DNA of 64,000 nt from a virus (lineage: Duplodnaviria > Caudoviricetes), in the IMG/VR virus record IMGVR_UViG_3300014968_000001, positions 8,496-72,495 of that record; one strand, 5' to 3'. Shown one piece after another: positions 2,023-34,590 of this stretch (positions within the stretch are counted from its first letter, which is position 1; each line of letters starts with the position of its first letter). Made by a program: the position numbers and the translations under genes. The notes under the pieces are model-generated. The model had not been told where the DNA came from and ran no database searches. It saw only the letters and a program-made list of their open reading frames with translations.

Positions 2023-2023
2023 A

Positions 2024-3275: not shown

Positions 3276-3279
3276 ACAA

Positions 3280-4935: not shown

Positions 4936-4942
4936 AATGAGT

Positions 4943-7890: not shown

Positions 7891-7893
7891 TAA

Positions 7894-10800
7894 ATGCCAT
7901 TTACCCCGCCCAATTCCATTGATGAACTGATTGCTGACGATTCTCCGCCGCCAGCAAAATATAATTTTACCCCGCCGCAATCCGCCGATGACGTGACGGA
8001 TATTTCAGCACCGCCGGATTCCAGTTTCAGACCGCCCGATGCCAGCAAAGGCATAAAAGAGGACAGCAAATTAGCACAGAGAGCCAAAGAGTTGGCCGAT
8101 GTACAGGAACAAAAATCGGAACCGACCACGCCGTTGGGGGCGGGGACAAAGGAATTTGTCCGGGGCATTCCCGCGTTCGCGCATCGTGGCGGGGCGGTAA
8201 CATTGGCGGCGATGTCGGACGCGGCGGCTAAAGCCTACAACTTCGTTAATCCCGACAATCCGTTGCCGGATACCAGCGTGAGTCAATTTTCACAGAATCC
8301 AACTGCACCATTACCCGCCGAGGAAGGCGCGGAAGAAATGCGAGGTATTGGACGGTTCGGTCAGAAAGCGTTGCAGGGCGCAATCAAGGTCGCGCCGGCG
8401 ATTGGCGCAAGCGCGGGGATTGGCGCGGTGGGCGTGGCCCCTGAGATTGCCGGTGCTATTCCATTTGCTTTTGATGCCAATGGAAAACCCGATCCCGTGA
8501 GCGCAGGGCTGATGCTGGCGTTGCCCGGTATTGGAAAATTGGGAGAGAAAGGCGTGGCGAAGTGGCTGGACAGCACGGCGGGTTACGATACTGCGGAGAA
8601 AATCGCTGGCGTAATCAAAGATGCCACGGGCAAACCGGTATCGAAAGACACAGTGGCGGCATGGCTTAAGGCGGGGGGGAATCAAGTCGCGGCAAACGCA
8701 GCTTTGATGGCGTCCCAAATTCCGGACATCGCCAAGTCCGAAAATCCGAAGCAGGCATTTTTAGACGCATTGGCGGGAAACCTTGCTCCGTCGTTACTGG
8801 CTTTCATGGGGCACGAGCAGGAGCCGGGAAGTCCTGATGCCCAAAAGACCGCCGCATTGAATTCCGGCAAGTGGGTAGTGCCAGGAACCGAGCGGCGATT
8901 GATTGGAACAGAAGAAAAACGCAACATTCAACCACCAACAGAAGGAGGGCCAAGTGCCAGTGGAATACGAGAAGATACGGGACAGCCTGCGGAAGCGGGG
9001 AAAACCATTGAAGGAAGCAAAACGGATAGCGGCAATGACGTGGAACAAACGCCATCCGGACAATCCGAATCCGTGGCGGAACGAAAAGAAGTCCCGCCGG
9101 AAACGCCGCAACCGCCTTCGGGAAATGTCCCACTGACACCAGCCGTTGACAGGGCTCAACGCCTCGAAGATTTGCGCAAGATTCCAAACCGAACCCCGGA
9201 ACAGGAGCAGGAATTTCAGGCGTTAGTAGCCGAATCCGGTTCGGTTCAACAGAAGATGGCGGCGGAGATTGCGAAGGTTAAAGCCAATGAAAAACCAACA
9301 CCCGCAGTTCCACCCCAAGAAACGCCGCCGCCAAAGCCGCCTGATACTCCTGCTGTTGCGCTGACTGAAATGCCGAGTTTGGCCCTGCATGTGGAGGGAG
9401 AAAAGACCGTTCGCCAGGTTAAGAACATGGAGGAAGCGGCGGCACTGGTTGACCAGTTGCGCGAGGCGTCAGACATGGGTAGCAGTGAATTTCCGCAGAT
9501 GACCATTGTTGACACCAAGACCGGAAAGCCCGTGGCACGGGTCAGTTACAATGGACGAATTTGGGGATTGGACGGGAAGGAAATTGAAAGGGCAGACAAC
9601 CGTGGATATGGCAAACCTGATGCGATTGACGTTTCAAAAGAGACGCCCAAACAGCCCATTTTTAAACCCGCAAAAATCGAACGCCCTTGGGACATCATCG
9701 ACGAAATCGAAAGCAAACACGGCACGATTTTAAACAAGAAATCCAGCAAGCCGGGGCACGAGGATTATTACAACACGGAAGGTTACACCCGCGCGGCGAG
9801 CGGTGCGGGCAAGCGGTTGTTCTCTGCAAAAGGCAGTGGGCCGGATAAAATATTGCAGGCGTTGATTGATTCAGGTGCGATGCACCCGGACGCGACCGTG
9901 GACGATTTATGGGAGGCGATTGACCGGGCCAGCAAAGCGCGGGGCGCACATTATCGCGGAGAATTGCCGGAGCAAAAGGCGAACAAATTCTACGCGGCGA
10001 TGGACAAGGCGTTGAAGGATAAAAAGTCGCAGAAATTGACTGTGGGCGAATTGCAGGTTGGCGACCAGTTCACTTTGGGTAAGGAAAAGTTCACAGTCAA
10101 ATTCATCGACCCCGATACAGGCGAAGTGACGGTTCAGGATGGCAAGAAGTTTGGGACGCAGACGATACCGGACGGGGCGGATATTGCCGTGGATGCTGGA
10201 AGCTATAAGGCGGCAAAGCCGGAGACAGCATCGGAAGACCCGTTTGCTGTGGAAAACACCAAGACACCACCAAAACTCCGTCCCGGCGAAAAAGTCGGTG
10301 AAATGTTTCAAGGCGGCGACCAGCCGTTCAATTTGTCCGGCGAAACCACCAAGGACATCGAGCGCATTCAGAAGGAGAAAGAGGCGGCAGAAAAAGCCGC
10401 AGCGGAAGCGAAAGCGTTGCAGGAAAAGCAGCAGTTGGGATTGCCGGGGACGGAGACTAAATCGACTGGCCCACAAAAATATCGTATCGGCAAAAACCCG
10501 TCCACCTACGAAATCGTCGAACGCTTGCCCGCCAGCGATGTTGAAAAAGAGAACGGCGAACAACCGGTCAAAATCAAGAACGACCGGACGGGCGAAGTCA
10601 GCACGGTTTTGGAACAGGATTTGACGGCGGTGCAGAGTCATGCGGGCGAGGAAAAGGCGGCGAAAGGACCATCGCTGGACGACCAGTTGAAGGCTTACGG
10701 CATGGACCCGGGCGGTTTCCAGAATGCCGCGCAGAAACGCGAGGCAATAAAGCGGGCGAAGGCGAAGGGGGATAAACCTAAATTCTCCGTTCAAGCCGAT

Positions 10801-13800
10801 CCCAACGCACCGCCAATTCAGCAAGGCGCAGCAACCGGCGTTGAAGGCATCGGCCAATTGCTCAGGCAGGCGGGTTACGACGAAAAGACCGTCGCCGTGG
10901 CGCAACGGATATTGGATAGGCTGGATAAAACCGGCGCATTGGATTTTAGCAAGTTGACCCTGCAATTGAAGCAGCAATTGGAATATGGCGCGGCTGGTCT
11001 GGCGCATGTGAGCCACGACCTGATTCAATTGGCATCGGGCGCGAACGCCACGACGTTTCCGCATGAACTGTTTCACTTTCTATTCGAGCATCTGCCGGCG
11101 GAGCGACAGGCGGAAATCAACCAGTATAGGGTGGCGGAATTGCGGAATATTCTCGGTGACAATATTCCGAAGGAATTGGCCGATGGCACGTTGACAACCG
11201 AAGCGTTTCTCAAGGCGTATCCGGATGACGACCACCAGAGGCTTTTGTATCCGTTGATAAACAACAGCGAATTTTTGGCCAACTTTGCCGGCAAAGAGGC
11301 AGTCAGCGATTACGAAAAGGCGAACGACCCGTCCAAGTGGAACCAGTTCAAGAACACCATCAAACAACTGGCTCGGATTGTGGTGCAATCGGTTCGGGGC
11401 GCGTTGCGGTTGCGCCCGGACATGCGGCAGATATTCGACGAATTGCAGGCAGGCAAATGGCGACCGGACGCGGAGAGCGGCAAGGCGTACGAGATGGCTA
11501 GGGAAGCGCAGGCGCAAGCACCGCGCACGCTCAGGGAATATGAGAAGGAAAAGGCGTTCAACGAGCCGTTGGTGGCGGAGCGCACATTGGGGGCGTACGG
11601 CGACATTGCCGATTTGAAGAACAAATTCGCCGATCAATTGGGCATCAGTGAGCAGGCCCGTAAAAACCTGAACCTGCCGAGCCAGGATTTGTTGAGCGCC
11701 GTGGCCAGTGGAGACGCCCGATTGCCGCGGGTGGCGTTCGACAATTACAATCAGGTGCGGATTTTAACGGAACACGCGGGGCCGGGAGCGCGATGGTCGG
11801 TCATTCGGGATGCGTGGCGTGGGGCGACCGACGAGTTGAATCGGATGGCCAATACCGAGAAGAAATTCCAGCGTCAACAGGAATACATCACGAGTAAAGG
11901 GTTTCGGGACAAGATGAAGCGGGCGTTCCAACGCAAGGCAGACGCCGATATGTCGCAGCGCACGTTGACCACGTTCAAGCATCAAATTACCGAGCAAGCG
12001 GGATTAATCATCAAAGCGTTGAATGAGAAGGGAAAGACCGACGCGCAAGTGGAACAATTGCGTCAGGATTTGGCACGGGTTCAAAAGTTGGGCGAGTTCG
12101 GGGAAGCGGTAAGACAGCGGGTGCAGGACATCATTGACACCGTGGCGGCGACCGAAGGCGGTCTGGATTTGCTCTATAACGGCACGGATAAGACCGGCAC
12201 GAAGATTTACAATGCCTATTTGGATTTGAAAGAGTCCACCGCCAAGCAACCGCCATCAGCAGGATTGGCCGGGACTGTCGATGAACGGTTTTTAAGCGCC
12301 GAAGATAAGGCGCGGGTTGCTGCGAGCAAACTGCCATTGGTGAGCGAGGATCACAAACTATTCGCCAAGCTCGCCGCGCAAGTGCTGGCCGCAAACACGG
12401 ATTTGAGGCTGCAACTGGCCACCATGCAGCATTTCAATACCGATCCTGATTTCGCCGGGAAAGTCACGGCAGTCGGGGAGAAGTTTCGGAAGCAGTACGA
12501 GAAAGACCCGACGAACGCGGTGAAGCAGATGGTCAAGGCCACGGAAGGATTGACGAAGAAAGCGTTGGACGCGCAGACAGCATGGTTGCGGGTGAACGCC
12601 GATGTCACAAGGGAATTGAAGAAATATCAGGCGTTGGACGAAGCCACTACGGTTGACCGGATGGTTCGGGAATCGTCCCAGTGGAATCAGCGCATGAACC
12701 TGATTTCTCGGGATGCGGGCAGCATCGAAGTGCCGCCATCCGAGCGTGGGCGGGATACCAACCCGATTTCACCGTCGAACGTCTGGAACGAGTTCATGGG
12801 CCGGGGAACTATGGTTGGGCCGAGTGGTGCTACATACGAGATTGATTTGGGACATACTAAGGCAACCGCCGATGCCGCGCAACTTGAGACGCAGAAATAC
12901 CTGAACGACATCAACAGTTGGTTGAACGATCCGAAGAACGCCACATCGCCGTATCGGGATTATTGGCAGATGCGCTTTGACTTCGCCGATGCGTCATTGA
13001 ACGTGTCCCTGGCGTTGCGACCGCCGACGGTGGAATCGTTGTGGTGGAAGAATCCGGCCACGATCCCCGAATTCTTTTTCAAAGGGGCTTCCCTGCCGGA
13101 CGCCAAGATTTCGAGCATGGCCAGCGCGAACTACGCCCGTGCATGGGTGGTGGCTGACCAATGGTATAACGGCGCCATGCCAAAAATCATCTACGCACTC
13201 CGCAAAGGCATGGGCAGTCACGGCAAGGAGTATGACGCGAATTTCGACATCAAACGGTATCAGCGCGACGTGATGGACCGGCTGGCATCGGAATATCGCC
13301 ACGGCAAAGCGTTGGCGGCGGGCGACCGGCTGAACAACGGTGTCGTTTTGACACAGCAAGACATCAAGGCGTTGGAAACAATTGGGTTTCACGTCAATGA
13401 ACTGATGAACCTGCAACGGAACATCGGGCGCGAAAAACTGATGCCCAACACGCTGGTCATCGATGAATGGGCAAAAGGTGCGTGGGGATTGCGCGCGCCG
13501 CAGGAATTGGGAGCACGCAAGGGGACGACGTTGCCGCATGAATTCTCACAACGGGCAAAGACACTGGCGCGACTGGTGGCGGGGCCGCAGGGGTTGAAAT
13601 CGGGTGATTTGGCTGGTCTGGAACAATTGCTCGATTCACAGGACAATTTCACCGAGTTCGTCCAACGATTCATTGCCGAACGGCGGGCGGATTATTCGAC
13701 ACAGACGCCGTTCGAGGACATCTATAAAGACATCGCGCAGAAATGGCGGGACGGAGCGCCGGATGCACCGCAAACGATTCAGGAGATTGTTGACTACATC

Positions 13801-16563
13801 GACTCCAACACGACGAGCGATTACGACAAGGACAGCATCAAGGGTATTTTGTTGGGCGAGATGGACGGTCAGATTCGGAAGTTCTACAAGGATTTTGTGG
13901 AGCCGAACAAAAACTCCGCCGGGGCCACTACGGTTGAGAGCGTGCAGCGGGACACCGCTTTCAGCAAGGCGTACCAGAAAGATGTCGGAAGTTCGTTCTA
14001 TTACGATTACGGAGCGGTGACAGCTCCGGAAATCCGCAACATGGGCGTGGACTCGACCAACTTCCATTTGGTTCGACTGGTCAACACCCTGGATGCACTG
14101 GTGAAATCGTATGACACCGCCATCGCGCAGATTGAAGGCGTGTCCAAAGACGATCAGAAAGCGTTCATCAAAAAGGGCATGGTGGCGTTTCGCAGCGGTG
14201 AAGATTTTCGGAATTGGGAACGGTTGAAAGCGGAGCGTCGCATCGCCCAATATTTCAAGGAATCATTGCCGCAAGCGTACGGCAAAGACCAATCGTTGCC
14301 ACTGGAACTGTTTAGCAACGTCAAGCGGGTGACGGGCGATGCCATTTCTACGGCGTTGAGCGGGTTGGGCACGTTCCTGAATGTGTCCTTTGGTTCGCCG
14401 ATGAAGATGATGCTGACGTTGGGCGCATTGGATCGGGTGTATGGGATGACCTATTTCCGGGGCGTCCTGAACACGATGGCCAGCGTCATGCGCTACGGTT
14501 TGGTTGGAGTGCCCAAGACCGCGTATAAAATCGGCAAGATCGGGTTTGACTTGCATTCGGTCGGATTGAAAGAAAAAGCGGCGGAGTTCTGGATACGCGG
14601 ATTGCAGGAAGCGACCGAAGGATTGTTTCGCCAGTCGGAGTTCTACGACCAGCAATACAAGTATGGGTTGGGCTTTGCGAACCCGGTTGGGGAACGAATC
14701 GCCAACATCATCGCCATGCCCTACACGCACGGGATGGGTTACGAAGCGAAATTTTCCGATAACCCGCTTCTTGCCGGCGGACAGAAGTTGGGATTTCGCG
14801 CGTTGAGTCTCGCCGAAGCGCCGTTGGAACTGGTGAAGTCGTATTTCCCACAATTCGGTTACGTGGTGAGCTACGATGCTGCGGCACGGACGGCGGGACA
14901 GATTATTGACGGCATCGCAGGGCAGGCGCGGCGATCATTCGATTATCTGGAAAAGAGCGGCAAACTGGCGCAATGGGATTTGAAGGACATCAAAAGTCCG
15001 AAGAACCAACAGATACCATCGGAATACGTCATCCCGGGTTTCTTCACCAAGAAAAGTGCCACCGCACAGAATTTCGCGGCGTTATGGTGGTCACGGGCGA
15101 TTGACCAGCCGTTCCACGAGACGGTGTTGAACTACTGGAAAAAGCTCAGTGAAACCAAACCGGAAGACAGGGACAAGGTGAGCTTTCTCGCAGCGGACGT
15201 GGCTGATCCCGCGAAGGTAAAACAGGTTGAGGACGCGCGCGGCGGGGCGTTGTTGGGTGTGGCGGTCAAGGACGTGCATCATGCCAGCCCGGAGAATCGC
15301 CCGTTGGAACTGCGCAAGAACCAGTTGTTGAGCGCCATCTTCCCGTTGGCCGGTTGGTTCAGTCATTCCGCCAGGGGCGTGTTTCAAGCCGTTGGAAAAG
15401 CACCCACCGACCCATATAGCACCTACCGCCGATTGGCGGTCATCGCAGGCATCACGGCGTTGAACGTGGCGGCAATGGGCATCGTTGGCGGCGAGGTCGA
15501 GAAGGAAATCAAGCGGTTGATGTATAAACTCGTGTATCACGAGGAATTTCCCGCGAAACAGATTTGGCGCGGTGGCAGCGCAAAAGAAGTCGCGCAGATA
15601 GCGTTGATGGACGATACCAGCTTCATCCCGTTGGCGCATGATGTCGCGGCGATCCTGTTGGGCACAAAACGCGGCGGCGAAGGATTGGGCGGGACAGTGT
15701 TCGCCTTGAGCAAACTCAATTCGATACTGGATTATTTCAAAGGCGTCATCAAAACCGGACAACCGACGTATGGCGTGGCGAACCTGTTAAAGACGATGGC
15801 GCCAAGCACCAAGGTCATCATCAATCAACTCGCCAGCCAACAGGGATTGATTGCGGCTCGAAATGCCAAGACGTTGCTGGATTTGTATGGGCCGGAAGAT
15901 TTGCGCGGCAAAGGTCAGGAAGTGACGTTCCATGACCCGACACCGTTGACGCCGTATCGAAACGATTTGCGGAACGCGATATTTTCGGGCGATGCCGAAG
16001 GGGTGAAAGTGGCGGCGAAAGCGTATCTGGACAAGGCAGTGGCGATGGGCAATGAACCGGAGAAAGCGCAGTCATTGTTGCGGTCCACGATGAGCGCCTT
16101 GAACCTGATGAAGATGGGTGGGAAGAAGTTGACGGACGACCAACTCGCAGCGTTCATCGGAAACCTGACAGACGCGGAAAAGGCACAAGTCAATGCGGCC
16201 AATCAGAATTGGGTGGGGGCAGAGAAGGCGTTGGGGATGGAAGGAACGTTGACCGCGCAACCGCCGGGTGGCAGCGCAGGGCGAATCGGCGGCAGCGGTG
16301 CAGGCGTGACCAGCGCATACGACACAGGCGGTCGAACTGGGAAACTGCGACCGTTGAGCGCAGGCGGTGGCTCATTCCGACGTGCAGCGATTGGTGGTGG
16401 AACAGGTAGATTGCGTCGGATGGCCGGTGGACGCTCTACGAGTGCGCCGTCGAAGGCCACCGCCATGAAAGCACCGAAGCTGCGTCGGACGACCAGCCAT
16501 TTTCGAGGGGGCACGACGAACAGGTTGCGGAGTCATCATAAGAAGAACGCTTTGTTGGCGTAA
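7894..16563 (+). CDS. Giant (2889 aa) ejection/polyvalent-type virion protein with zincin HExxH domain
   Basis: Gly/Ala-rich hydrophobic N-terminal helices, small globular domains, TTFPHELFH (11062-11076) with downstream EFLANF, long helical C-terminal half, Arg-rich tail. Confidence 0.75.
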   Translation: MPFTPPNSIDELIADDSPPPAKYNFTPPQSADDVTDISAPPDSSFRPPDASKGIKEDSKLAQRAKELADVQEQKSEPTTPLGAGTKEFVRGIPAFAHRGGAVTLAAMSDAAAKAYNFVNPDNPLPDTSVSQFSQNPTAPLPAEEGAEEMRGIGRFGQKALQGAIKVAPAIGASAGIGAVGVAPEIAGAIPFAFDANGKPDPVSAGLMLALPGIGKLGEKGVAKWLDSTAGYDTAEKIAGVIKDATGKPVSKDTVAAWLKAGGNQVAANAALMASQIPDIAKSENPKQAFLDALAGNLAPSLLAFMGHEQEPGSPDAQKTAALNSGKWVVPGTERRLIGTEEKRNIQPPTEGGPSASGIREDTGQPAEAGKTIEGSKTDSGNDVEQTPSGQSESVAERKEVPPETPQPPSGNVPLTPAVDRAQRLEDLRKIPNRTPEQEQEFQALVAESGSVQQKMAAEIAKVKANEKPTPAVPPQETPPPKPPDTPAVALTEMPSLALHVEGEKTVRQVKNMEEAAALVDQLREASDMGSSEFPQMTIVDTKTGKPVARVSYNGRIWGLDGKEIERADNRGYGKPDAIDVSKETPKQPIFKPAKIERPWDIIDEIESKHGTILNKKSSKPGHEDYYNTEGYTRAASGAGKRLFSAKGSGPDKILQALIDSGAMHPDATVDDLWEAIDRASKARGAHYRGELPEQKANKFYAAMDKALKDKKSQKLTVGELQVGDQFTLGKEKFTVKFIDPDTGEVTVQDGKKFGTQTIPDGADIAVDAGSYKAAKPETASEDPFAVENTKTPPKLRPGEKVGEMFQGGDQPFNLSGETTKDIERIQKEKEAAEKAAAEAKALQEKQQLGLPGTETKSTGPQKYRIGKNPSTYEIVERLPASDVEKENGEQPVKIKNDRTGEVSTVLEQDLTAVQSHAGEEKAAKGPSLDDQLKAYGMDPGGFQNAAQKREAIKRAKAKGDKPKFSVQADPNAPPIQQGAATGVEGIGQLLRQAGYDEKTVAVAQRILDRLDKTGALDFSKLTLQLKQQLEYGAAGLAHVSHDLIQLASGANATTFPHELFHFLFEHLPAERQAEINQYRVAELRNILGDNIPKELADGTLTTEAFLKAYPDDDHQRLLYPLINNSEFLANFAGKEAVSDYEKANDPSKWNQFKNTIKQLARIVVQSVRGALRLRPDMRQIFDELQAGKWRPDAESGKAYEMAREAQAQAPRTLREYEKEKAFNEPLVAERTLGAYGDIADLKNKFADQLGISEQARKNLNLPSQDLLSAVASGDARLPRVAFDNYNQVRILTEHAGPGARWSVIRDAWRGATDELNRMANTEKKFQRQQEYITSKGFRDKMKRAFQRKADADMSQRTLTTFKHQITEQAGLIIKALNEKGKTDAQVEQLRQDLARVQKLGEFGEAVRQRVQDIIDTVAATEGGLDLLYNGTDKTGTKIYNAYLDLKESTAKQPPSAGLAGTVDERFLSAEDKARVAASKLPLVSEDHKLFAKLAAQVLAANTDLRLQLATMQHFNTDPDFAGKVTAVGEKFRKQYEKDPTNAVKQMVKATEGLTKKALDAQTAWLRVNADVTRELKKYQALDEATTVDRMVRESSQWNQRMNLISRDAGSIEVPPSERGRDTNPISPSNVWNEFMGRGTMVGPSGATYEIDLGHTKATADAAQLETQKYLNDINSWLNDPKNATSPYRDYWQMRFDFADASLNVSLALRPPTVESLWWKNPATIPEFFFKGASLPDAKISSMASANYARAWVVADQWYNGAMPKIIYALRKGMGSHGKEYDANFDIKRYQRDVMDRLASEYRHGKALAAGDRLNNGVVLTQQDIKALETIGFHVNELMNLQRNIGREKLMPNTLVIDEWAKGAWGLRAPQELGARKGTTLPHEFSQRAKTLARLVAGPQGLKSGDLAGLEQLLDSQDNFTEFVQRFIAERRADYSTQTPFEDIYKDIAQKWRDGAPDAPQTIQEIVDYIDSNTTSDYDKDSIKGILLGEMDGQIRKFYKDFVEPNKNSAGATTVESVQRDTAFSKAYQKDVGSSFYYDYGAVTAPEIRNMGVDSTNFHLVRLVNTLDALVKSYDTAIAQIEGVSKDDQKAFIKKGMVAFRSGEDFRNWERLKAERRIAQYFKESLPQAYGKDQSLPLELFSNVKRVTGDAISTALSGLGTFLNVSFGSPMKMMLTLGALDRVYGMTYFRGVLNTMASVMRYGLVGVPKTAYKIGKIGFDLHSVGLKEKAAEFWIRGLQEATEGLFRQSEFYDQQYKYGLGFANPVGERIANIIAMPYTHGMGYEAKFSDNPLLAGGQKLGFRALSLAEAPLELVKSYFPQFGYVVSYDAAARTAGQIIDGIAGQARRSFDYLEKSGKLAQWDLKDIKSPKNQQIPSEYVIPGFFTKKSATAQNFAALWWSRAIDQPFHETVLNYWKKLSETKPEDRDKVSFLAADVADPAKVKQVEDARGGALLGVAVKDVHHASPENRPLELRKNQLLSAIFPLAGWFSHSARGVFQAVGKAPTDPYSTYRRLAVIAGITALNVAAMGIVGGEVEKEIKRLMYKLVYHEEFPAKQIWRGGSAKEVAQIALMDDTSFIPLAHDVAAILLGTKRGGEGLGGTVFALSKLNSILDYFKGVIKTGQPTYGVANLLKTMAPSTKVIINQLASQQGLIAARNAKTLLDLYGPEDLRGKGQEVTFHDPTPLTPYRNDLRNAIFSGDAEGVKVAAKAYLDKAVAMGNEPEKAQSLLRSTMSALNLMKMGGKKLTDDQLAAFIGNLTDAEKAQVNAANQNWVGAEKALGMEGTLTAQPPGGSAGRIGGSGAGVTSAYDTGGRTGKLRPLSAGGGSFRRAAIGGGTGRLRRMAGGRSTSAPSKATAMKAPKLRRTTSHFRGGTTNRLRSHHKKNALLA

Positions 16564-20112: not shown

Positions 20113-20436
20113 ATGATGCCGTTTTTGAAACTGACTCCGGCAGTGGCACACAGGATTTGGATGCGTTCGCCATTTGCGAATTGGTGGATTAAGAAATGGA
20201 TAGACACTCCCATTACGCCCGAGACTTCTCCGTTCTGGTTTGAGTCTATGTATCCGATGTTCCTAAGAGACGATGATGGGAACATGGTAAAATTGGACTA
20301 TTCACCGAAATTCAAGAAATGGTTGGAGTTTTGCGTTACGAAATACCAGCCGTCGCCAAACGAATCTGAGTCTCTATCCGGCTCAAGCAACAATCCCCGC
20401 CAATCGCCGGACTGCCATCGGTCGCTTGGATGGTAA
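20113..20436 (+). CDS. Hypothetical protein, 3' end overlapping the nozzle gene
   Basis: ATG 2 nt after the upstream stop; Trp/Phe-rich. Confidence 0.5.
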   Translation: MMPFLKLTPAVAHRIWMRSPFANWWIKKWIDTPITPETSPFWFESMYPMFLRDDDGNMVKLDYSPKFKKWLEFCVTKYQPSPNESESLSGSSNNPRQSPDCHRSLGW

Positions 20437-22192
20437 TTTCAAAGTAGATGAACCGGCCCGATTGCAGCATCGGCCATTCAAACGGCGGGATCGGTTTCAA
20501 CAGCGCCGCCGCCAGTTGTGGTGAAGTTTGTGTTGAATTACACGCCATCGGCTTGTCCGGTTGCGGATACCACAACACGGAACACACGCCATCCGGAAGG
20601 TTCGGGTCGGCTTCACTCTCCGATGTGCCAATCCGCAGGTGAACCACGTTGTTGATGGACGAATCTGACGGGGTGCATTCCAGCAGAAAATTGCGGATGA
20701 ACTTTTCCCGGTCATAATTCTGCAAAGGCAACAACGCCCGCAGGATACGGTAATACCCTTCATACGAGTATTGGCCGGTGAACGGGATGTATTTGCCATC
20801 CACGGTCGTTCCTTTGCCCGTGGCTGCGTTGGTGCAAATCGCGCGCGAGAACACATTCCCGATTTCCTTCAGGCACAGGTCAGGGCAACCGGCGCCGAGA
20901 AAGAGTTGCGCGGATTGGCAGGCTTCGGGATCGGCGGTGGACGGACGGAAATTGACGAACGCGGAAAACCCGTAATCCAGCACGTCCGGCGATTTGTATT
21001 GGTAGTCGAAGATGAACGTTGAGGAATTGACACAGCCACCGTCGCCGTTCGCCGCCGCTTGAGGCCATGACAACCAGATTTCGGTGGTGTCCGGATGCAG
21101 TATCATTACAGGACTTTGGCAGCAGGACGGGTCGAGGGCGGTCAGGTTATCGTTAAACACCATCGCAGAACCCCGATACAACCATTCGGTGCGTTCAGGT
21201 TCGGGGATGTACGGACTGAAAAAGTAGATGCCATCCGAGCCGCAATACCAGCAGGAATTTCCGGCGGAAACCAGCGTGTTCGGATAGGCAAGGCATTTGT
21301 TCTGGTTCAACGGTTCGGAATAGACTTTGGCAAAGCTGAACGTGGGCGATCCCGATTGAGTGCTGTTATTGACGAAGATGACCCAGATGGCTTGCGTGGT
21401 GAACACGTAAAGGCTCCCGGCCATCGGTATGGCGTTGAGGATGCGTTCGCCGTAATCTAGGTCTTGGAATCCCGCGAGCGTAGAGTTGCCCGAGCAATCC
21501 ATTGTGCCAGGTGCATCCTGCCAGCTTAAAGGGCAGTTGATGGACGACCAGCGGATTCGGCTGGAAATGCGTTTGCCGCCTTCCACGAGGTCCATCAGGA
21601 AGATGAATCCGTTCCATGACACCGTGACACCCGCCTTGGTGACTTGCATCGTAACGAGGTCAGGGATGGTCGAGGCGGCATTGGAACCTATGTTGGTGTG
21701 ATGCGGGGGATCGACGTTATTGGTGAACACCAGTTCATTTTGCAGGAGCGACATGCGGAACCGCGTCTGGGGCAGGGACGTTTCGGGAGTGCCACCGAGA
21801 TTGGTGATAACGGTCTGCCAATAACCGCTCACGGTGTTGAGGTATTTTATCCAGCTTTGAGAACCGGCATAGAGGGTGGTGTTGCCGGTGTTATCGAGGG
21901 CGGAAAAGAGCAGGGTGATGAATTCACGACCGGCGGTGGAGGGAACGTCGAATTGATCGTGAAGATCGAAATTACTATAAGCCGGTGGTATCAGAGAACC
22001 ATTGACGAACGAGGCGAAGGCGCGGTCGAAGTTGGGGCGGATGCACAATTTATTCCCGCCGCGCAGTTGCCAGTTCTGTTTGAATCTCCATGCGCCGAGC
22101 GGGACATCTTCGACTTCGCTGCGCGTATCCAAAACGCCAGTCAAAGGGCGAATGCTCACAGTCTGCCACGTCTCACCGCGTCGTCGTGCCAT
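20336..22192 (-). CDS. Tail nozzle / DNA stabilization protein (P22 gp10 / T7 gp12-like)
   Basis: 618 aa beta-rich; N-terminal GVLDTRSEVEDVPLGAWRFKQN and IRWSSINCPLSW patterns typical of podovirus nozzle propellers. Confidence 0.7.
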   Translation of the reverse strand: MARRRGETWQTVSIRPLTGVLDTRSEVEDVPLGAWRFKQNWQLRGGNKLCIRPNFDRAFASFVNGSLIPPAYSNFDLHDQFDVPSTAGREFITLLFSALDNTGNTTLYAGSQSWIKYLNTVSGYWQTVITNLGGTPETSLPQTRFRMSLLQNELVFTNNVDPPHHTNIGSNAASTIPDLVTMQVTKAGVTVSWNGFIFLMDLVEGGKRISSRIRWSSINCPLSWQDAPGTMDCSGNSTLAGFQDLDYGERILNAIPMAGSLYVFTTQAIWVIFVNNSTQSGSPTFSFAKVYSEPLNQNKCLAYPNTLVSAGNSCWYCGSDGIYFFSPYIPEPERTEWLYRGSAMVFNDNLTALDPSCCQSPVMILHPDTTEIWLSWPQAAANGDGGCVNSSTFIFDYQYKSPDVLDYGFSAFVNFRPSTADPEACQSAQLFLGAGCPDLCLKEIGNVFSRAICTNAATGKGTTVDGKYIPFTGQYSYEGYYRILRALLPLQNYDREKFIRNFLLECTPSDSSINNVVHLRIGTSESEADPNLPDGVCSVLWYPQPDKPMACNSTQTSPQLAAALLKPIPPFEWPMLQSGRFIYFEITIQATDGSPAIGGDCCLSRIETQIRLATAGIS

Positions 22193-22195
22193 AAA

Positions 22196-23116
22196 TTATG
22201 GGCAAGATAGCCCGAAATGGGAAAGATACCATTCAAAACTGCGAACGAAAATCGACTGGTTATAGGCCCGTTCGGAAAGCAGGGTGTTCCATTCCGCGTT
22301 GACCTGGCGTTTTGACAGCGTCAAATCCTCGGAATTTTGCAGCGTGGCGATGAGGGCGGCAGCGCGTTCCCGAGGTAAACAGGTGTGGGCGAGCGCGAGC
22401 TTATTGAAAGTAACCTTCCACTGGTCAGTCTTATACGTCGTGGACTGACGAAACTGATGCCCGATCCTTACGGTTTTCAGCATCCGAATATCCCCACCCG
22501 CCAGCCACCATTTGAGCGACAAAAACGGCTCGTCCAAACCCCACCCCTTCAAAAGCTTCAACCCGCCAACGTGAAAATAAAAGTCAGTCGGCATGACGTA
22601 ACCAGCGCCCATGATGCAGGACAACGGGTAATCATCTTCGCCAGGCCGTTCCTTCGCCCATTTGCCTTCGAGCGTCTGCATCCTGCCGCCGTCGTTTTGG
22701 TCAGGGCCGTAAAAGTGAATGTAAGCCCCGTGATAATCGCCGCGCGCCTGAGACATGTCCATCATCCCCGGAACGAGTTGAACGCACAGCAGGTTATGCA
22801 GGGTCGTTGGTCGGTCTTTGATGCGATCCATCAAGGTTTCGTACCAGCCGTTTTCAAAGCGTACATGGCTGTCGGTGAGCAGAAGAAAATCTCCCGTGGC
22901 GCGCAATGCACCAATGTGCCGAGAGGCGGCGACCCCGGCCCTTTCATCATTGCGGATAAGATGGCACTTTTTGTCCTCCAAAGAGAGCGGGACTTGGCTC
23001 GCATCATCTATGACAATTACCTCCGGTTTGTCGCCAGCGGTGTCGCGGATGCTTTTGATGGTGGCTTGGCATTCCAAATAGTCGTTGAGGCAGGGTATGA
23101 TGATGCTGAGTCTCAT
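22196..23116 (-). CDS. GT-A glycosyltransferase resembling the polypeptide GalNAc-transferase catalytic domain
   Basis: SIIIP, VIVIDDAS, GVAASRHIGA..ATGDFLLLTDSH (DxH), GWGLDEPFLSLKWWLAGG, IGHQFR. Confidence 0.85.
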   Translation of the reverse strand: MRLSIIIPCLNDYLECQATIKSIRDTAGDKPEVIVIDDASQVPLSLEDKKCHLIRNDERAGVAASRHIGALRATGDFLLLTDSHVRFENGWYETLMDRIKDRPTTLHNLLCVQLVPGMMDMSQARGDYHGAYIHFYGPDQNDGGRMQTLEGKWAKERPGEDDYPLSCIMGAGYVMPTDFYFHVGGLKLLKGWGLDEPFLSLKWWLAGGDIRMLKTVRIGHQFRQSTTYKTDQWKVTFNKLALAHTCLPRERAAALIATLQNSEDLTLSKRQVNAEWNTLLSERAYNQSIFVRSFEWYLSHFGLSCP

Positions 23117-23421
23117 TTAATTTCTCCGTTGGTAATGAATCCGTGCCATTCGTTGTATTTTGAGAAATCAAGCGAGGGAGTCAATGTGAGAGTTTCAAAT
23201 GTGTCACCAGTGCGTTGCCAACGGTGCATCCCACCATAAAGTTCTGGATTGTCCGCAGGGTCGGATAACCAGCCAAGATTGAGAGGGTCAATCGGGTTTT
23301 TGAAAAGGCATCCAAGATGCTGTCCGGTGCCCAACGGCGACAGGAACGAAACCCCAACAACAAGTTTATTCCACGGCTGGCCATAGCCAAGCCACGAAGG
23401 TTCAAGGTAGGTCAGTCTCAC
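23113..23421 (-). CDS. DUF6527-like small protein
   Basis: C-terminal W.RTGDTFETLTLTPSL...WHGFITNGEI. Confidence 0.55.
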   Translation of the reverse strand: MRLTYLEPSWLGYGQPWNKLVVGVSFLSPLGTGQHLGCLFKNPIDPLNLGWLSDPADNPELYGGMHRWQRTGDTFETLTLTPSLDFSKYNEWHGFITNGEIK

Positions 23422-24935
23422 AACGGTAATGGTGTATACCCACTCTCCCCCGGTTTGCCAACATTCATTCCTTCGGTCGGTCGAATCAGTTCATCGACGC
23501 ATTCGCTGGAAACCAAGTAGCTCGCGGCGTCGTAAACGTGCTTTAGCGGGCTAAGTTTATTAATGGCAATGTTGCCCTTCCCCTTTTTGATGCCCTGAAA
23601 GGATTCAATGAGATGGGGGCATTTCGAGCGTGAGATGAAGATGCGATTCTCGAAGAACAGACGTTTCAACAGGTCAACCCGTTGGCCGACCGACCCAGGG
23701 CCTTTGTTGACGGCGGTGAGTATAATCTTGCCGCCGCTTTCCTGACGGATGAACTCATGCGGCAGGATGGCCGACATGCTGCCTTGAACATCGAACACAT
23801 TTCGGTCAGACCAATTCCGCCACATTAACGGATGGCCGCAGTGTTCCTCCCAAAACTCGATTTTCTCAAGCACCTCAGCGACGAAATCTGAAAACAGAAT
23901 CTTTTCCCCGACATAAACCACTTCATCCAGGAATTTGAAAATACTGATGGGTTTGGCGGAGCGTTCAATCGTGATCTTCTCAGCGATGACCATTGCATGA
24001 TTTACGTCGCCGGGGTCCCAGCCCGTTATCAGTTCGGAACAATTTTCTTCGGGGATGAGGCAGTCTGGTTCGGGATTGGAACGGGTTTCCGGGTCGCCGA
24101 CGATATGCACGTTGGGACGAAACTGTTCGTGGAACACGGAATTTCCGGATGCCTTCACCCATTTACCGTAATAATAGCGAGCCAACAAATCTTCGGAATG
24201 TTCGTACTTGGCTTTTTGGGACAGGTGCCACGATTCATCTTTGAAAATGTTGTCCGATACGTTGAACTCCATCAACGCAAGGCATTCGGCGAACATCGCC
24301 ATGCCCTTGTTATCGCCCCAGTCCAGAACTCGGTCTTCATACCACAGCTTCCAAATCCACGAATCTGTGCCTTCCTCGGACGGATTAGTGTCGCCAATGA
24401 AGATGTGCTGCCATTCCTGCCATTGACCGCGTAGACATTCCCGCCAGCAATCGAAGGTTGCGCGGCTTTTGTAATTGGACAATTCGGACACGTAAATGCC
24501 ACTATACGACTTACCTTTGAACCGTTCCTCGACATCATCCTCGTGCTTGAGGGAATCCAGGTGAACGCGCGACATCGTGCCGTATTTGTTTTTTACCTCA
24601 CAATACAGCTTCTTGGTCGTGCCCTTCTGGCGCGGCGTGGTGATCCATTCCATGCCGAAATCGCCCCCGATCCATTCAGGGAGCGTCTTTTCGGTCAGTT
24701 CAGTCCACATACCGGAATCATCGCCGGCGGTGACGGTAGGGCAGACCACGGCGAACCGGGCGTCTTTCACTTCCCACAGGTGTTCGGCGATGGCGGCCAT
24801 GCAACCCGTGGACTTGGTGGACATGCGCGGTCCACTGACGAGGATGTATTTCTTGGGGTTTTCGGGGAAGCGATGGCACAGGCGGAGCAACTCCATCTGC
24901 CTGGGGCTTAATGAGGGATGGAACGGGTCTGACAT
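23418..24935 (-). CDS. terL: Terminase large subunit
   Basis: LSPRQ, SGPRMSTKS (variant Walker A), GIYVSE (variant Walker B), GDTNP, RYYYGKW, nuclease GWDPG and HVYDAASY. Start ATG 24935; the ORF-track extension is antisense to the next gene. Confidence 0.9.
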   Translation of the reverse strand: MSDPFHPSLSPRQMELLRLCHRFPENPKKYILVSGPRMSTKSTGCMAAIAEHLWEVKDARFAVVCPTVTAGDDSGMWTELTEKTLPEWIGGDFGMEWITTPRQKGTTKKLYCEVKNKYGTMSRVHLDSLKHEDDVEERFKGKSYSGIYVSELSNYKSRATFDCWRECLRGQWQEWQHIFIGDTNPSEEGTDSWIWKLWYEDRVLDWGDNKGMAMFAECLALMEFNVSDNIFKDESWHLSQKAKYEHSEDLLARYYYGKWVKASGNSVFHEQFRPNVHIVGDPETRSNPEPDCLIPEENCSELITGWDPGDVNHAMVIAEKITIERSAKPISIFKFLDEVVYVGEKILFSDFVAEVLEKIEFWEEHCGHPLMWRNWSDRNVFDVQGSMSAILPHEFIRQESGGKIILTAVNKGPGSVGQRVDLLKRLFFENRIFISRSKCPHLIESFQGIKKGKGNIAINKLSPLKHVYDAASYLVSSECVDELIRPTEGMNVGKPGESGYTPLPL

Positions 24936-25035
24936 TTTGTTCTTGCCAGTACTACCTAAAAGTCTTAGATGATGCAATAACAGAGTCACCAAACAATCCA
25001 AGGCGACTCGAACAATGTTTGAAAAGGCTAACTTT

Positions 25036-25383
25036 ATGGCAAACAAACCGTACCAACCGATGAACGATCCCGCCGATGGTGAAACCGACGCCCCCGATAG
25101 CGGCGAATCCCCGGCACAAGTGACGCTGGACAAGAGCAACCCTGACATTGCCGAGGCGTTCGCCGAGTGCAAGGAAGGCGACATGTACAAGGTCGTCAAG
25201 GATGACGAGAACGAGATTGTTTTGGAGAAACAGCCGGACATGGCGGCAGGCGGCGAGGAAGAAAACGCCGGGGAAAACATGAACGAAGGCGGTCAGGAGG
25301 AATCCGGCGGCGAGGATGATGGCAGTTTCAAATCCGACAAGCCGGGGATTGCGCTGTTGATCGCCAAGAAGCGGAAGCAGTAA
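25036..25383 (+). CDS. Acidic hypothetical protein with basic C-terminus
   Basis: D/E-rich, 115 aa, ends AKKRKQ. Confidence 0.7.
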   Translation: MANKPYQPMNDPADGETDAPDSGESPAQVTLDKSNPDIAEAFAECKEGDMYKVVKDDENEIVLEKQPDMAAGGEEENAGENMNEGGQEESGGEDDGSFKSDKPGIALLIAKKRKQ

Positions 25384-30215: not shown

Positions 30216-32150
30216 ATGGCGAATACGACGAATAACAATCTGCTCCTGGCACCGAACGCATTCTCGAAGTGCGCCCCGAACCTTTCCACCAACATCAAGC
30301 AATGCGGCACGGTGACGTTGTGCAACGCCATCCCCATGACGCCTGCCGACCTGAGTACCGCGTTCACGTCCGGCGGCAATTATCGCGTGATGTCGTCCCT
30401 GCTGAAGCACGACATGGAAATCAAGATGTGCTCGGCCAAGCAGAATGGCCTGTACGACTTCCTGATGGCCAACAAGGTGTCGATGGGCCACAAAATCCGC
30501 ACGGAGAAAATCAATTCCGGCCTTATCCGCATCGCCCCCTACGTTCTCGCCCGTCAGTACACGAACATCAACAACGAATACTGGCAGGTATCCAACGGCG
30601 CGACCAACGGCGCCTACTGGCAGGTCGATGTTACCAGCCCGACTGGGATTCCGGCCAATGAACGCTCTTTCGGTCCCGGCAATCGCGTGTTCATCGACGG
30701 TGTGACCGGCGGCGGCACGGCTACCCACACGGAATGGCTGATTATTTCCTCGACTGTCACCGGCAACACGGTGGTCCTGATTTTGCAGGCGGCGCAAGCC
30801 GGTTCCTACCTGGCGGCTTCCAGTTTGACCAGCCCGACGGTCGGCATTATGACCCGCGGCACGGCGAACGTAAACGATTACGAGAAGTATTGCGATGAGC
30901 CGGCGGCTTACCTGAACTGGAACAACGTTCCGTTCTGGACGGAAACGATGCGAACCACGGTTTGCACGTCCGAACAATATCAGCTCTGGCGCAAGCTTCT
31001 GCTGGCCGACAACCCGCTCTACGCTGAATACGGCGACCTCGACGAGATCGAGAAGAACCGCCAGTTGGGTGCCGATTGGCAGAAGCGCATGGTGGCTCAG
31101 ATGTTCTGGGGTAAGGCGACCAATGCCAACCAGACCCTCGCGCTCTATCCGAACCTGCCGCAAATCGAAACCTATCCGGGTGGAAATTTCGACGTTGGCG
31201 GCGCGCAATGCGTCGGTGTTCGCGCCGACATGATCGGGCTTTACGAGCAGATGGCGCAATGCGGTCGGATCGTTGACCTGCAAGGCGCGGCGCTGAACCT
31301 GATTTCCCTGTTCAATGCGCTCTATCAGATGATGCGCGTGCGGGAAGGTTCCACGGGTCAAAACGTTAAGTCGTTCGATTTGTTCACGGACAATCAGACC
31401 GCCGAAGCCATCAATTACGCGATGGTGACGCAGTATTACCAGAGCAAGAGCAACAACCAGTTGCGCTTGAACTACGACGTGAACGCCAGCGGGAATGCTC
31501 CGCAATCGGCCAATTTCGGGTTCAACTTCCGGTCTTACAACCTGTTCTACCCGAACGTGCGTATCAATGTCGTGACGCATTATTACTTTGACGATTACGT
31601 GACCGCGCAGGCGGCAGTCGGAAACAACAACGGACGCTTCCTGTGGTGCCTGGATTTCACGGGCATCTATCCCGGCATCATGGCGACCAACCGCAAGGTG
31701 CTGAACACGGGCGACCTCAAGACGCTCGCGGCGATTGATTCCTCATGGGGCTGCGTCATGGAAGTGTTCACCAAACAGACCACGGCGACGAGTGTTACCG
31801 GGACGATGGTGGTGGAATGTCCGGCGGCGAACCTGATGATCGAAAACTTCCCGTTGACCGGCATCATCGGCAGCAATGTGTCGCCGAACCCGACCACGCC
31901 GCCCGTGTATCCGCCGTCGGCGACCAGCACGACCACGACGACCACCTTGGGCACGTTGTATTACAATACGCTTCAATCGTTCACGGCGACGTGTCCGGTG
32001 GGTTACGAGGGTGCTCCGGTGACTGTGAGCAGCGCGGCGAATTCGTTTGTGTCGAGCATCTCGCAGGCGGACGCCAATGCGAAAGCGTTGAGCGCGGCGA
32101 CCTTGGCAGCGCAACAGCAATTGGTCTGCACGCCAATCAATAATCCGTAA
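30216..32150 (+). CDS. Major capsid protein with C-terminal Thr-rich linker and DUF5977-like domain
   Basis: Follows portal and scaffold; spine-helix-like EKNRQLGADWQKRMVAQMFWG; terminator follows; extension after PNPTTPPVYPPSATSTTTTTT. Confidence 0.8.
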   Translation: MANTTNNNLLLAPNAFSKCAPNLSTNIKQCGTVTLCNAIPMTPADLSTAFTSGGNYRVMSSLLKHDMEIKMCSAKQNGLYDFLMANKVSMGHKIRTEKINSGLIRIAPYVLARQYTNINNEYWQVSNGATNGAYWQVDVTSPTGIPANERSFGPGNRVFIDGVTGGGTATHTEWLIISSTVTGNTVVLILQAAQAGSYLAASSLTSPTVGIMTRGTANVNDYEKYCDEPAAYLNWNNVPFWTETMRTTVCTSEQYQLWRKLLLADNPLYAEYGDLDEIEKNRQLGADWQKRMVAQMFWGKATNANQTLALYPNLPQIETYPGGNFDVGGAQCVGVRADMIGLYEQMAQCGRIVDLQGAALNLISLFNALYQMMRVREGSTGQNVKSFDLFTDNQTAEAINYAMVTQYYQSKSNNQLRLNYDVNASGNAPQSANFGFNFRSYNLFYPNVRINVVTHYYFDDYVTAQAAVGNNNGRFLWCLDFTGIYPGIMATNRKVLNTGDLKTLAAIDSSWGCVMEVFTKQTTATSVTGTMVVECPAANLMIENFPLTGIIGSNVSPNPTTPPVYPPSATSTTTTTTLGTLYYNTLQSFTATCPVGYEGAPVTVSSAANSFVSSISQADANAKALSAATLAAQQQLVCTPINNP

Positions 32151-32883: not shown

Positions 32884-34590
32884 ATGGCCACAGTTTACAC
32901 ATTTGGCGACCTGCAAACGGAGCTTAAGCAGAGTTTGTTTCCGACCGGATTGCCTGTCAATTTGGTCGTTCCAGTTCGCCTGATGTTCGTCGAGGCCATG
33001 TTGGATTTGCAGAAGTTCGTCGAGTGCCTGCAAATCAATAACGTCCAAGTCATTCCTCAATGCAATACCTTCTTCAAATGCGGGTACACCGTGACCGATG
33101 CTCCGAGGGGAAGAATCACAAGGGTGTACACCATCGACAAAATCAATCAGGAAACGGGATTGGAAGACCCGACCGTGGCTTTGGATTGGTGTTCAGTGGT
33201 GGAATTGAGGCAGGCGAATTACGATGACCTTGACCGTTACGTTTCCACGACTTTGGCGGGATCGTTGGGGGAAGGATTCTGGCCGTGGCTGATTGGTTTT
33301 GGATTGCAGGGCGTCGTGGCATTTCCCTCGACGTGCCTGAACTGGTGGTATGACAAATACGCTTACCCGCCACCCGATGATACGCCGTTCGCCAAGTCGC
33401 CACCGTTGCCGTTGGGTTTTCATTACCCGCAATCCGCCACCGACAATCCTGCTGGCCGTTCGCAATGGGGTTTGTGGGCGTTGAAAGGTGGTCAGATATA
33501 CGTGGCGCCGTGGATTCAAAGCACGGAGACGCTGGTGATAGAATGGAACGGGCTGAAGCGGGATTGGCAGGACTCGGACCTCGTGGACAACGATCCGATG
33601 TTGAAACAGGCGGTTGAAGCGTATGTGTCCAAGGAATACGCCCGGAAGTACGACCGGGATTACGATGCCGAAGCGTCATTCGCGGCAAGGTTCAATGAAG
33701 CCCGGGCGATTTTGATGGATGAATGCCGGCGCGAGACGGAAATCAGGGATTCAGGCGAAGGCGCGGCGGCGCGCGGAGCGGCGTTGATAGTGCCGACGTT
33801 CGTGAATGACGCGCAGACAGCCACGGCGCAATGCCCTACTGGCACTACCGGAGCATCCGTGAGTTACACCGTGCCTCAAGGATTCGTGGTTTCAACGGTG
33901 TCAGTTGCCGATGCCAACGCGCGCGCTCTAAGCCTTGCATTGCAGACGGCGGGTCAGCAATTGACTTGCACGGTTACGCCACCCACATTTTTCAATACGC
34001 CACAGAGTTTCACGGCCAATTGCGGCACGGGCACTGGCAGCCCTGTGACAGTGAACATCGCCGCCGGTCAATTCTCGTCCATTATCAGTCAAGCCGATGC
34101 TGACGCTCAGGCTTTAGCAGCGGCGACGGCAGCGGCGGAATCGCAGATACATTGTACGTTCTTGAATACGCAGCAGCAATATACAGCCACATGCCCACAG
34201 GGAACCACCGGAACACCAGTGACCAAGACCGTTGCGGCAGGGGCCTACACGTCTACTATTTCGCAGAGTGATGCCGATCAGAAGGCGTTGACCGATGCCA
34301 CGAATCAGGCGAATGCCGCGTTGACGTGCAATGTGCCGCCAACGGTGTTTTGGAACACGGAACAAACCGTTACCAATAACCGTGTGTGTTTTGGCCGGGT
34401 TGGCTGCACGCCAAAGACGTTTACGGAGAGTTATACCGTTCCTGCGCATACCATTTCATCAATCGGCTCTCAAGGTGCGGCAAACCTGGCGGCGATAAAT
34501 TTGGGGCAAAACATTGTGAACTCGCTGCTGAGTGCTGACTGCGCTAATTATGCGGTCACATGCTCAGGCGGCCCGGGAGGTGGATTGTGA
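32884..34590 (+). CDS. Head-tail adaptor (P22 gp4 / T7 gp11-like) fused to four DUF5977-like repeats
   Basis: N-terminal TFGDLQTELKQSL helix, beta insert, MLKQAVEAYV helix; repeats at 33799-34540. Confidence 0.7.
   Translation: MATVYTFGDLQTELKQSLFPTGLPVNLVVPVRLMFVEAMLDLQKFVECLQINNVQVIPQCNTFFKCGYTVTDAPRGRITRVYTIDKINQETGLEDPTVALDWCSVVELRQANYDDLDRYVSTTLAGSLGEGFWPWLIGFGLQGVVAFPSTCLNWWYDKYAYPPPDDTPFAKSPPLPLGFHYPQSATDNPAGRSQWGLWALKGGQIYVAPWIQSTETLVIEWNGLKRDWQDSDLVDNDPMLKQAVEAYVSKEYARKYDRDYDAEASFAARFNEARAILMDECRRETEIRDSGEGAAARGAALIVPTFVNDAQTATAQCPTGTTGASVSYTVPQGFVVSTVSVADANARALSLALQTAGQQLTCTVTPPTFFNTPQSFTANCGTGTGSPVTVNIAAGQFSSIISQADADAQALAAATAAAESQIHCTFLNTQQQYTATCPQGTTGTPVTKTVAAGAYTSTISQSDADQKALTDATNQANAALTCNVPPTVFWNTEQTVTNNRVCFGRVGCTPKTFTESYTVPAHTISSIGSQGAANLAAINLGQNIVNSLLSADCANYAVTCSGGPGGGL

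Follow-up and report, generated by a model that had tools for sequence, protein, structure and literature searches.

What would a phage do with an enzyme of the kind that starts mucin-type O-glycosylation in animals? This question is raised by a 64,000-nucleotide (nt) stretch of DNA (hereafter the window), which corresponds to bases 8496-72495 of a 72,495-bp virus record from IMG/VR (IMGVR_UViG_3300014968_000001) that has direct terminal repeats (DTR) and is rated 100% complete. The enzymes of glycosyltransferase (GT) family 27 (GT27), i.e. the polypeptide N-acetylgalactosaminyltransferases (ppGalNAc-Ts), initiate mucin-type O-glycosylation and are regarded as an invention of the eukaryotes. 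The gene in question (window positions 22196-23116, minus strand) is an uninterrupted open reading frame (ORF) of 306 amino acids (aa) with an ATG start, which encodes the catalytic domain only, and the initial annotation of this DNA had assigned it a ppGalNAc-T fold and a role coupled to virion morphogenesis. Judged from its sequence and its structural model, the gene product is most likely a soluble, Mn2+-dependent GT-A glycosyltransferase of the GT27 type, cut down to the catalytic domain, with a predicted activity. As to its role, we lean slightly towards a cytoplasmic protein O-glycosyltransferase that is made with the late genes and would start the glycosylation of a threonine tract of the major capsid protein, the glycan then being elaborated by other phage-encoded GTs and methyltransferases.

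The class assignment was approached at the levels of sequence, profile and structure. With phmmer, the 16 best distinct sequences in the PDB were all ppGalNAc-Ts (E-values of 2e-13 to 6e-7), and the next match had an E-value of 0.06. A profile of the family (A1), built from 29 homologues of the 306-aa protein, matched GT27 chains with E-values of 4.5e-30 to 4e-21, covering profile positions 3 to 283-299, whereas its best match outside GT27, a chondroitin synthase (E-value of 2e-9), covered the first ~100 positions only. The AlphaFold (AF2) model of the protein has a predicted local distance difference test score (pLDDT) of 95.4 and a predicted template modelling score (pTM) of 0.92, and the top 50 Foldseek matches of this model in the PDB were all ppGalNAc-Ts. 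VIA-align (VIA), a structure search independent of Foldseek that covered 48,161 representative chains, gave Z-scores of 29.1 for mouse GalNAc-T1 (root mean square deviation (rmsd) of 2.6 Å over 281 residues) and 28.1 for Toxoplasma GalNAc-T3; the next family (B4GALNT1, GlfT2, K4CP, TarS etc.) scored 18.4 and below. Thus phmmer, profile, Foldseek and VIA all agree on the GT27 fold that had been proposed from the letters alone, as opposed to an ordinary DxD-type GT2 enzyme, and both the structure prediction and the profile comparison suggested as checks at that time came out in its favour. An ordinary lipopolysaccharide (LPS) or cell-wall GT2 enzyme as the best structural match was ruled out by the 11-unit gap in Z and by the C-terminal half of the protein, which matches GT27 only.

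The 306 residues align with residues 116-425 of mouse GalNAc-T1, which are its catalytic domain only. No ricin-type lectin domain was found in the protein, whose last residue aligns to approximately residue 425 of the mouse enzyme and whose only Pfam domain is PF00535 (generic GT2, residues 4-104). A hydrophobic anchor was likewise not detected in it (the highest 19-residue Kyte-Doolittle mean is 0.9), and in the model the fold begins with its first beta strand at the very N-terminus, with no type II membrane anchor and stem. The earlier remark that lectin domain and anchor are missing was therefore correct. The Pfam search gave no match of the protein to PF02709, and none to PF11397 (GT60) at E-values up to 1. 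We file the protein as GT27-like rather than as a member of GT27.

The three motifs on which the initial annotation was based are all found in the intact ORF: G-x2-A-x-R...GD-x-L-x3-DSH, which terminates at D82-S83-H84, GWGLDE..LSLKWW..GG at residues 191-208, and IGHQFR at residues 218-223. The key residues of the enzyme are D37-D38, R59, R66, D82-x-H84, W192-G193-x-D195-E196 and H220-x-F-R223, and since D82, H84, G193, E196 and H220 are invariant in the 29 homologues, the motifs are not chance matches. In a wider set of 209 domain instances from 193 relatives (counted in non-gap cells), D82 was kept in 195/197, H84 in 192/194, G193 in 190/196, E196 in 194/196 and H220 in 192/195, and the strict conservation of D82, H84, E196 and H220 indicates that the family is catalytically constrained. 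In the alignment with human GalNAc-T2 (numbering of the full-length chain 4d0t_A), D38 corresponds to D176, R59 to R201, R66 to R208 and D82-x-H84 to D224-x-H226, and H220 falls on the histidine of GHVFR. More generally, D82-S-H84 pairs with DSH of GalNAc-T2 and with DSH/DAH of T10 and of the Toxoplasma enzyme TgT3, and H220 pairs with the histidine of GHVFR/GHIYR in GT27 chains, i.e. the third metal ligand. Both the DxH metal motif in place of DxD and the GHxFR third metal ligand could thus be confirmed. In place of the WGGEN loop there is a variant of it: the tryptophan, a glycine and an acidic residue are kept, but the position of the Asn/Gln is occupied by an invariant glutamate, so that the loop is W192-G193-L-D195-E196 in the phage enzyme and W-G-G-E-N/Q in GT27 (T2, T10 and TgT3).

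The candidate acceptor lies in a 644-aa product (30216-32150, plus strand), which is composed of an HK97 fold (residues ~100-550), a Thr/Pro linker and a DUF5977 module. This product is identified as the major capsid protein because of the matches of its AF2 model and of the gene order, in which the portal gene and p487 (a gene in the scaffold position) precede it. The best Foldseek matches of the model were the phicrAss001 capsid protein (E-value of 9e-10) and other phage capsids, and VIA returned the phicrAss001 capsid protein with a Z-score of 11.5, nearly all further rows being HK97-fold capsids. The Thr-rich peptide that the initial annotation had named as a capsid substrate does therefore belong to a capsid protein. 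It is a Pro/Thr-rich linker ending in S-T-S-T6 (31884-31946, plus strand), a candidate site of O-glycosylation, and contains the only run of five or more Ser/Thr residues in the real genes of the 72.5-kb genome, encoded by mixed ACG/ACC codons. A run of at least five Ser/Thr residues was found in 107 of the 120 best capsid homologues (47-73% identity, the window's own protein excluded), approximately 25-35 residues past a conserved ECP..ENF motif. It forms the very C-terminus in 90/120 and precedes an added module in ~17/120, as it does in the window; P0276 and P0301 are examples of capsid homologues that have no such run. The flanks of the run vary freely and the run itself persists, which points to selection on the threonines themselves.

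The module that follows the linker in the window (31962-32117, plus strand; PF19404, E-value of 1.5e-10, residues 583-634) is also present on two other proteins of this phage, one of 568 aa (32884-34590; three Pfam copies) and one of 941 aa (34560-37385), the latter having VWA, Big_2 and proprotein-convertase P domains and an adhesin-like build. A further observation concerns the body of the capsid protein. Ten cysteines (C19, C30, C36, C72, C226, C250, C332, C349, C513 and C535) are invariant across 23 homologues at about 50% identity (alignment A2), which is unusual in a protein made in the cytoplasm; in the mature capsid they may bind metal or be joined as disulfides.

The distribution of the enzyme and of the threonine run was compared in the IMG/VR records that encode this capsid family and are at least 75% complete (n = 16). 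Both traits were present in 9 genomes (G000-G003 and G006-G010) and both were absent from 7 (G011-G017), with no discordant case. Records too fragmentary for this comparison added three concordant positives and no discordant case at adequate coverage. Each genome with the run carries 2-4 GT2-type genes, and in the genomes that are devoid of it none were found, except for one gene outside the GT27-like family (G014) and one sub-threshold match (G012). One of the latter genomes, G011, keeps the order TerL-portal-capsid-p568-p941 and has neither a GT cluster nor a threonine run. Because the conserved run occurs only in those related phages that also carry the enzyme, the phage probably sugar-coats its own capsid.

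The proposed course of events is as follows. At a late stage of infection the enzyme would act in the cytoplasm of the host, where a host UDP-sugar (an N-acetylhexosamine or a hexose) would serve as its donor and threonines within the C-terminal poly-Thr stretch of the major capsid protein would receive their first sugar. Other GTs of the phage, a TylF-type O-methyltransferase and further methyltransferases would then extend and cap the glycan, and the outcome would be a mucin-like coat or a stiff stalk outside the capsid, which in this phage would also bear the DUF5977 module. Judged by T7 display and encapsulins, a C-terminal tail of an HK97-fold capsid protein would be exposed on the outside.

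Several points weigh against this proposal, some of them on the side of the acceptor and others on that of the enzyme. The AF2 model of the capsid protein is of middling quality (pLDDT of 63), and the outward orientation of its C-terminus is presumed from other HK97-fold capsids. On the capsid tree, the threonine run and the GT traits change only twice, which leaves 1-2 independent pairs, and a single clade of GT-bearing phages is not rejected (approximately unbiased (AU) test, p 0.33); the perfect co-occurrence may thus reflect one historical event, and since the tree allows this, we regard it as suggestive and not as proof. It is the whole GT cluster that co-occurs with the run, and therefore another GT could be the initiator. 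In the active site, the replacement of the Asn/Gln that follows the loop glutamate of GT27 by the invariant E196 means that donor, mechanism and acceptor are not simply transferable from GT27, and the residues of the peptide groove of GalNAc-T2 (aromatics) are not aligned to conserved residues of the phage enzyme. The position of E196 corresponds to that of the catalytic base in the GT7 galactosyltransferases, which act on sugars, and for this reason neither a retaining mechanism nor UDP-GalNAc as the donor is assumed here.

Additional candidates for acceptors are encoded next to the enzyme in related viruses. In 15 related loci, one or two paralogous genes directly follow the GT27-like gene (e.g. 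tandem copies at 6972-7229 and 7256-8323 of locus L005 and at 3539-3769 and 3766-4545 of locus L012). Their products share an N-terminal domain that is followed by a Cys/Gly stretch and then by a Ser/Thr tail, and, on the basis of this composition and placement, these small proteins are likely further acceptors. No such gene was found in the genome of the window.

The remaining GTs of the phage form a separate GT/methyltransferase cluster on the plus strand. It opens with a 513-aa glycosyltransferase-like protein (38328-39869; phrog_14945, E-value of 2e-10), followed by the TylF-type sugar O-methyltransferase (39866-40393; PF05711, E-value of 6.6e-14), a 766-aa multi-domain GT (42775-45075) whose N-terminus is GT2-like and which also has a weakly GT9-like stretch, a weakly GT2-like protein of 219 aa (45308-45967; PF00535, E-value of 3.9e-4, below the Pfam cut-off), two S-adenosylmethionine (SAM) methyltransferase genes (46827-47288 and 47285-47842) and a GT2-like protein of 286 aa (48437-49297; PF00535, E-value of 3.2e-5), homologues of which adjoin the GT27-like gene in L016, L019 and G008. 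In an alternative within the same virion-glycosylation pathway, the GT27-like enzyme would extend the glycan and another GT, e.g. the 766-aa protein, would initiate it. The middle part of the latter is weakly similar to the GT9 heptosyltransferases (PF01075, E-value of 0.0013, below the cut-off), a family whose relatives O-heptosylate autotransporters, and its N-terminal domain, which is the other GT present in nearly all related loci, is as widespread there as the GT27-like gene. The joint distribution of the whole cluster with the threonine run and the GT7-like placement of E196, both mentioned above, fit an extending enzyme as well. However, the GT27-like protein is the only one that is clearly related to protein-directed GTs, no PDB sequence relatives were found for the other GTs of the cluster (the 513-aa and 766-aa proteins included), and it is directly after the GT27-like gene that the Ser/Thr-tailed proteins are encoded in the 15 relatives. 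We therefore regard a purely extending role as unlikely, and return to initiation on the capsid threonines as the reading that is followed below.

The immediate surroundings of the gene are those of a late operon. It belongs to a tightly packed minus-strand gene group together with the gene of the terminase large subunit (TerL; 23418-25280; PHROG 2, PF03237), from which it is separated by a small DUF6527 protein (23113-23421) whose ORF overlaps both neighbours by 4 nt each. On the other side, a gap of 3 nt separates it from the downstream gene of a 618-aa virion structural protein (20336-22192, minus strand; PHROG 3287 'virion structural protein'). The initial annotation had placed the gene between the nozzle and TerL genes; the position is as described, but the label 'nozzle' is unproven for the 618-aa protein, which is only weakly linked to the P22 gp10-like family PF11134 (through 17% of one neighbouring cluster). 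A scan for promoters and terminators gave scores no better than those of shuffled sequences. In the TerL ORF as listed, similarity to terminases begins only after ~115 codons; these codons encode a Ser-rich, low-complexity sequence, so that translation probably starts inside the ORF, near its residue 116.

Comparison with 20 related IMG/VR loci, each with a homologue of the GT at 36-52% identity, showed which part of this arrangement is conserved. A homologue of the 618-aa virion gene lies downstream on the same strand in 20/20, and this gene is the only constant neighbour of the GT27-like gene. Other GT genes are located upstream in 18/20 (directly abutting it in 6), and in most relatives the GT27-like gene closes the GT cluster, as exemplified by the complete genome G008 (portal, p487, capsid, p568, p941, GT cluster, GT27-like gene, virion-618). 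The TerL-GT arrangement occurs only in the sub-lineage of this phage (the window and L002). The earlier argument that the gene lies apart from the other GTs and is hence coupled to morphogenesis must therefore be abandoned, and the separation is better seen as a local rearrangement than as a conserved design. Elsewhere in the window, there is a single ORF of 2889 aa (7894-16563), which could encode a virion-packaged giant protein of the kind known from N4-like and crAss-like phages, and a 577-aa protein (3280-5013, minus strand) that matches a second 'terminase large subunit' PHROG (2666) as well as FtsK-like ATPases.

The same surroundings bear on a different kind of role, in which the enzyme would modify an envelope glycan of the host (LPS, capsule or a wall polymer) or build a free polysaccharide, in the manner of GtrB-type/GT2 morons. 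The database labels fit this view: PF00535 is all that Pfam gives, the PHROG matches of the protein are to GtrB-like and generic glycosyltransferase families (weak, E-value of ~0.005), and its relatives bear the Joint Genome Institute (JGI) label 'glycosyltransferase involved in cell wall biosynthesis'. These matches to PF00535 and PHROG, however, cover the generic N-terminal half only, the C-terminal half being found in GT27 alone; furthermore, the protein is soluble and has no membrane segment, the fold gap to the wall and LPS GT2 enzymes amounts to ~11 Z units, and the gene shares a late operon with TerL, within a phage genome bounded by DTRs. A role in the host envelope appears improbable on these grounds.

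The family to which the enzyme belongs is large. An HMMER scan of 1.84 billion representative proteins yielded 3,498 matches at E-values up to 1e-3 and 147 at E-values up to 1e-30. Most members are stand-alone proteins of ~300-330 aa, and the nearest clusters in the protein atlas are for the most part labelled as viral. Some relatives are fused to further GT domains, including the GT60-like PF11397, and a search for longer homologues revealed two fused forms only. In P0048 and P0049, single chains of 643-741 aa comprise a GT60-like (PF11397) stretch and a GT27-like domain; in P0152, P0172, P0184 and P0193, the GT27-like domain is joined to a LanC-like (lanthionine cyclase-like) domain. The fused relatives thus carry LanC-like or other GT domains and no lectins. 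Fusions of distant relatives to LanC-like or GT60-like domains fit with peptide-directed chemistry, and the LanC-like fusion encoded in a metagenome-assembled genome (MAG) of the Prevotellaceae hints at peptide glycosylation in bacteria. As for the host of the phage, the DUF5977 modules, the capsid fold nearest to that of phicrAss001 and the Prevotellaceae relative provide only hints, which are in the direction of the Bacteroidota.

Among the GenBank phages of INPHARED, no relative of the 306-aa protein was found beyond the generic N-terminal half, and no relative of the capsid protein of the window. Genome contigs searched with the single GT protein gave no related loci, and none were found among viral contigs either when a diverse alignment (A3) or each of three distant relatives served as the query. 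Ser/Thr-rich proteins are encoded near two GT27-like genes that are only distantly related (23-27% identity), those of L026 (115-831, with an adjacent 773-aa serine-repeat protein at 1696-4014) and L020 (6001-6948, with a nearby protein with a Thr/Ser-rich C-terminus at 12342-12851); these pairings are anecdotal and come with no background rate.

The LanC-like fusions (in relatives at ~31% identity, e.g. that of the Prevotellaceae MAG) might also be taken to mean that the acceptor of the enzyme is a secondary metabolite or a small peptide, similar to a ribosomally synthesized and post-translationally modified peptide (RiPP), and not a virion protein, but the window phage has no LanC-like or precursor-peptide gene beside the enzyme and the neighbourhood consists of virion genes in 20/20 related loci, which makes this very improbable. 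Glycosylation of phage DNA bases against restriction by the GT cluster, the GT27-like enzyme included, has a precedent in the glycan hypermodification of DNA by phage GTs (Pyle et al. 2024, as cited in a passage of PMC12619734) and would suit a phage rich in GTs and methyltransferases, yet it was rejected and is hardly to be expected, as no thymidylate-synthase-like hydroxymethylase was found in the complete genome by a search that was positive in 10/14 known control genomes, the fold is nearest to protein-directed enzymes, and the distribution of the GT genes follows that of the Thr tail of the capsid.

The closest known enzymes are the eukaryotic ppGalNAc-Ts (human T2, 2FFU/4D0T; T10, 2D7I; mouse T1, 8V9Q; Toxoplasma T3, 6S22/8UHV). 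The phage protein has in common with them the whole catalytic domain, i.e. the GT-A nucleotide-binding half and the Gal/GalNAc-T half (Z-scores of 28-29, rmsd of 2.4-2.6 Å, 277-281 of the 306 residues aligned, identity of ~20%), as well as D-x-H, the GHxFR histidine, the aligned DD, R59 and R66 positions and the W-G loop. It differs from them in being devoid of the ricin-type lectin domain, stem and anchor, in its predicted location (cytoplasm, as opposed to the Golgi), in the loop (W-G-x-D-E versus W-G-G-E-N/Q) and in the peptide-groove aromatics, which are unaligned. The GT60 polypeptide alpha-GlcNAc-transferases (PF11397; Dictyostelium and Trypanosoma) are also GT-A enzymes directed to Ser/Thr/Hyp residues of proteins; the phage enzyme lacks a PF11397 match, and some phage proteins (P0048 and P0049) join a PF11397-like domain to a GT27-like one. 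The GT7 beta-1,4-galactosyltransferases have the Gal/GalNAc-T motif region in common with it, but their fold resembles that of the phage enzyme much less (Drosophila b4GalT7, Z-score of 12.2) and PF02709 is not matched. The acidic pair after W-G-G in GT7 resembles D195-E196.

At the level of the system, self-encoded cytoplasmic GTs and sugar methyltransferases glycosylate virion (capsid or fibril) proteins in chloroviruses and mimivirus. The hosts of these viruses are eukaryotes, and the enzymes and linkages are different (mimivirus R699 has a Z-score of 13.3 against the model of the phage GT). In phages, capsid and tail-tube subunits that bear glycans at their C-termini are described for the mycobacteriophages Che8, Rita and Myrna, according to passages of PMC12619734 and PMC11256854 that cite Freeman et al. 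2023. Judging by these passages, the mycobacteriophages are the only phages whose virion glycosylation we can cite; the layout found here would be analogous and the enzyme type different. Both systems combine phage GT genes with a C-terminal capsid acceptor, here at the level of the sequence only, and a glycan coat on the virion is common to the mycobacteriophages and to the outcome proposed here. A Che8-type layout, with a Ser/Thr acceptor at the capsid C-terminus and phage GT genes, is indicated by 107 of the 120 capsid homologues and by the agreement of 16/16 records that are at least 75% complete. In contrast to the mycobacteriophages, the window represents a different phage lineage with an uncultured host and is known from its genes alone. 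Homology to the GTs gp108-110 of Che8 was rejected (hhalign probabilities of 15%, 7% and 0.2%), the similarity being confined to the generic GT-A start. Our literature search found no description of a phage GT27-like enzyme or of a poly-Thr capsid tail. A gene resembling GalNAc-transferases was reportedly noticed in phage Corndog by Pedulla et al. 2003.

Taken as a whole, we give about even chances to the general statement that a widespread lineage of uncultured phages of ~70-80 kb performs mucin-type O-glycosylation in the bacterial cytoplasm. Glycans on the conserved poly-Thr tail of the capsid protein (and, in some relatives, on small Thr-tailed proteins) would be initiated by a minimal GT27-like enzyme, giving the capsid a mucin-like coat. 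The family of this gene is mostly a phage family, in which the GT27 catalytic domain is complete and stands without lectin domain or anchor. If the statement is true, the enzyme family that starts mucin synthesis in animals has a large radiation, older or parallel, in phages and bacteria, and one soluble enzyme with one short peptide would make a simple test system for the choice of peptide acceptors and for the origin of the family. Virion glycosylation would then extend from the mycobacteriophages to an unrelated and abundant lineage of environmental phages that uses a different enzyme, and such a glycan coat would have effects on the stability, adhesion and recognition of these phages.

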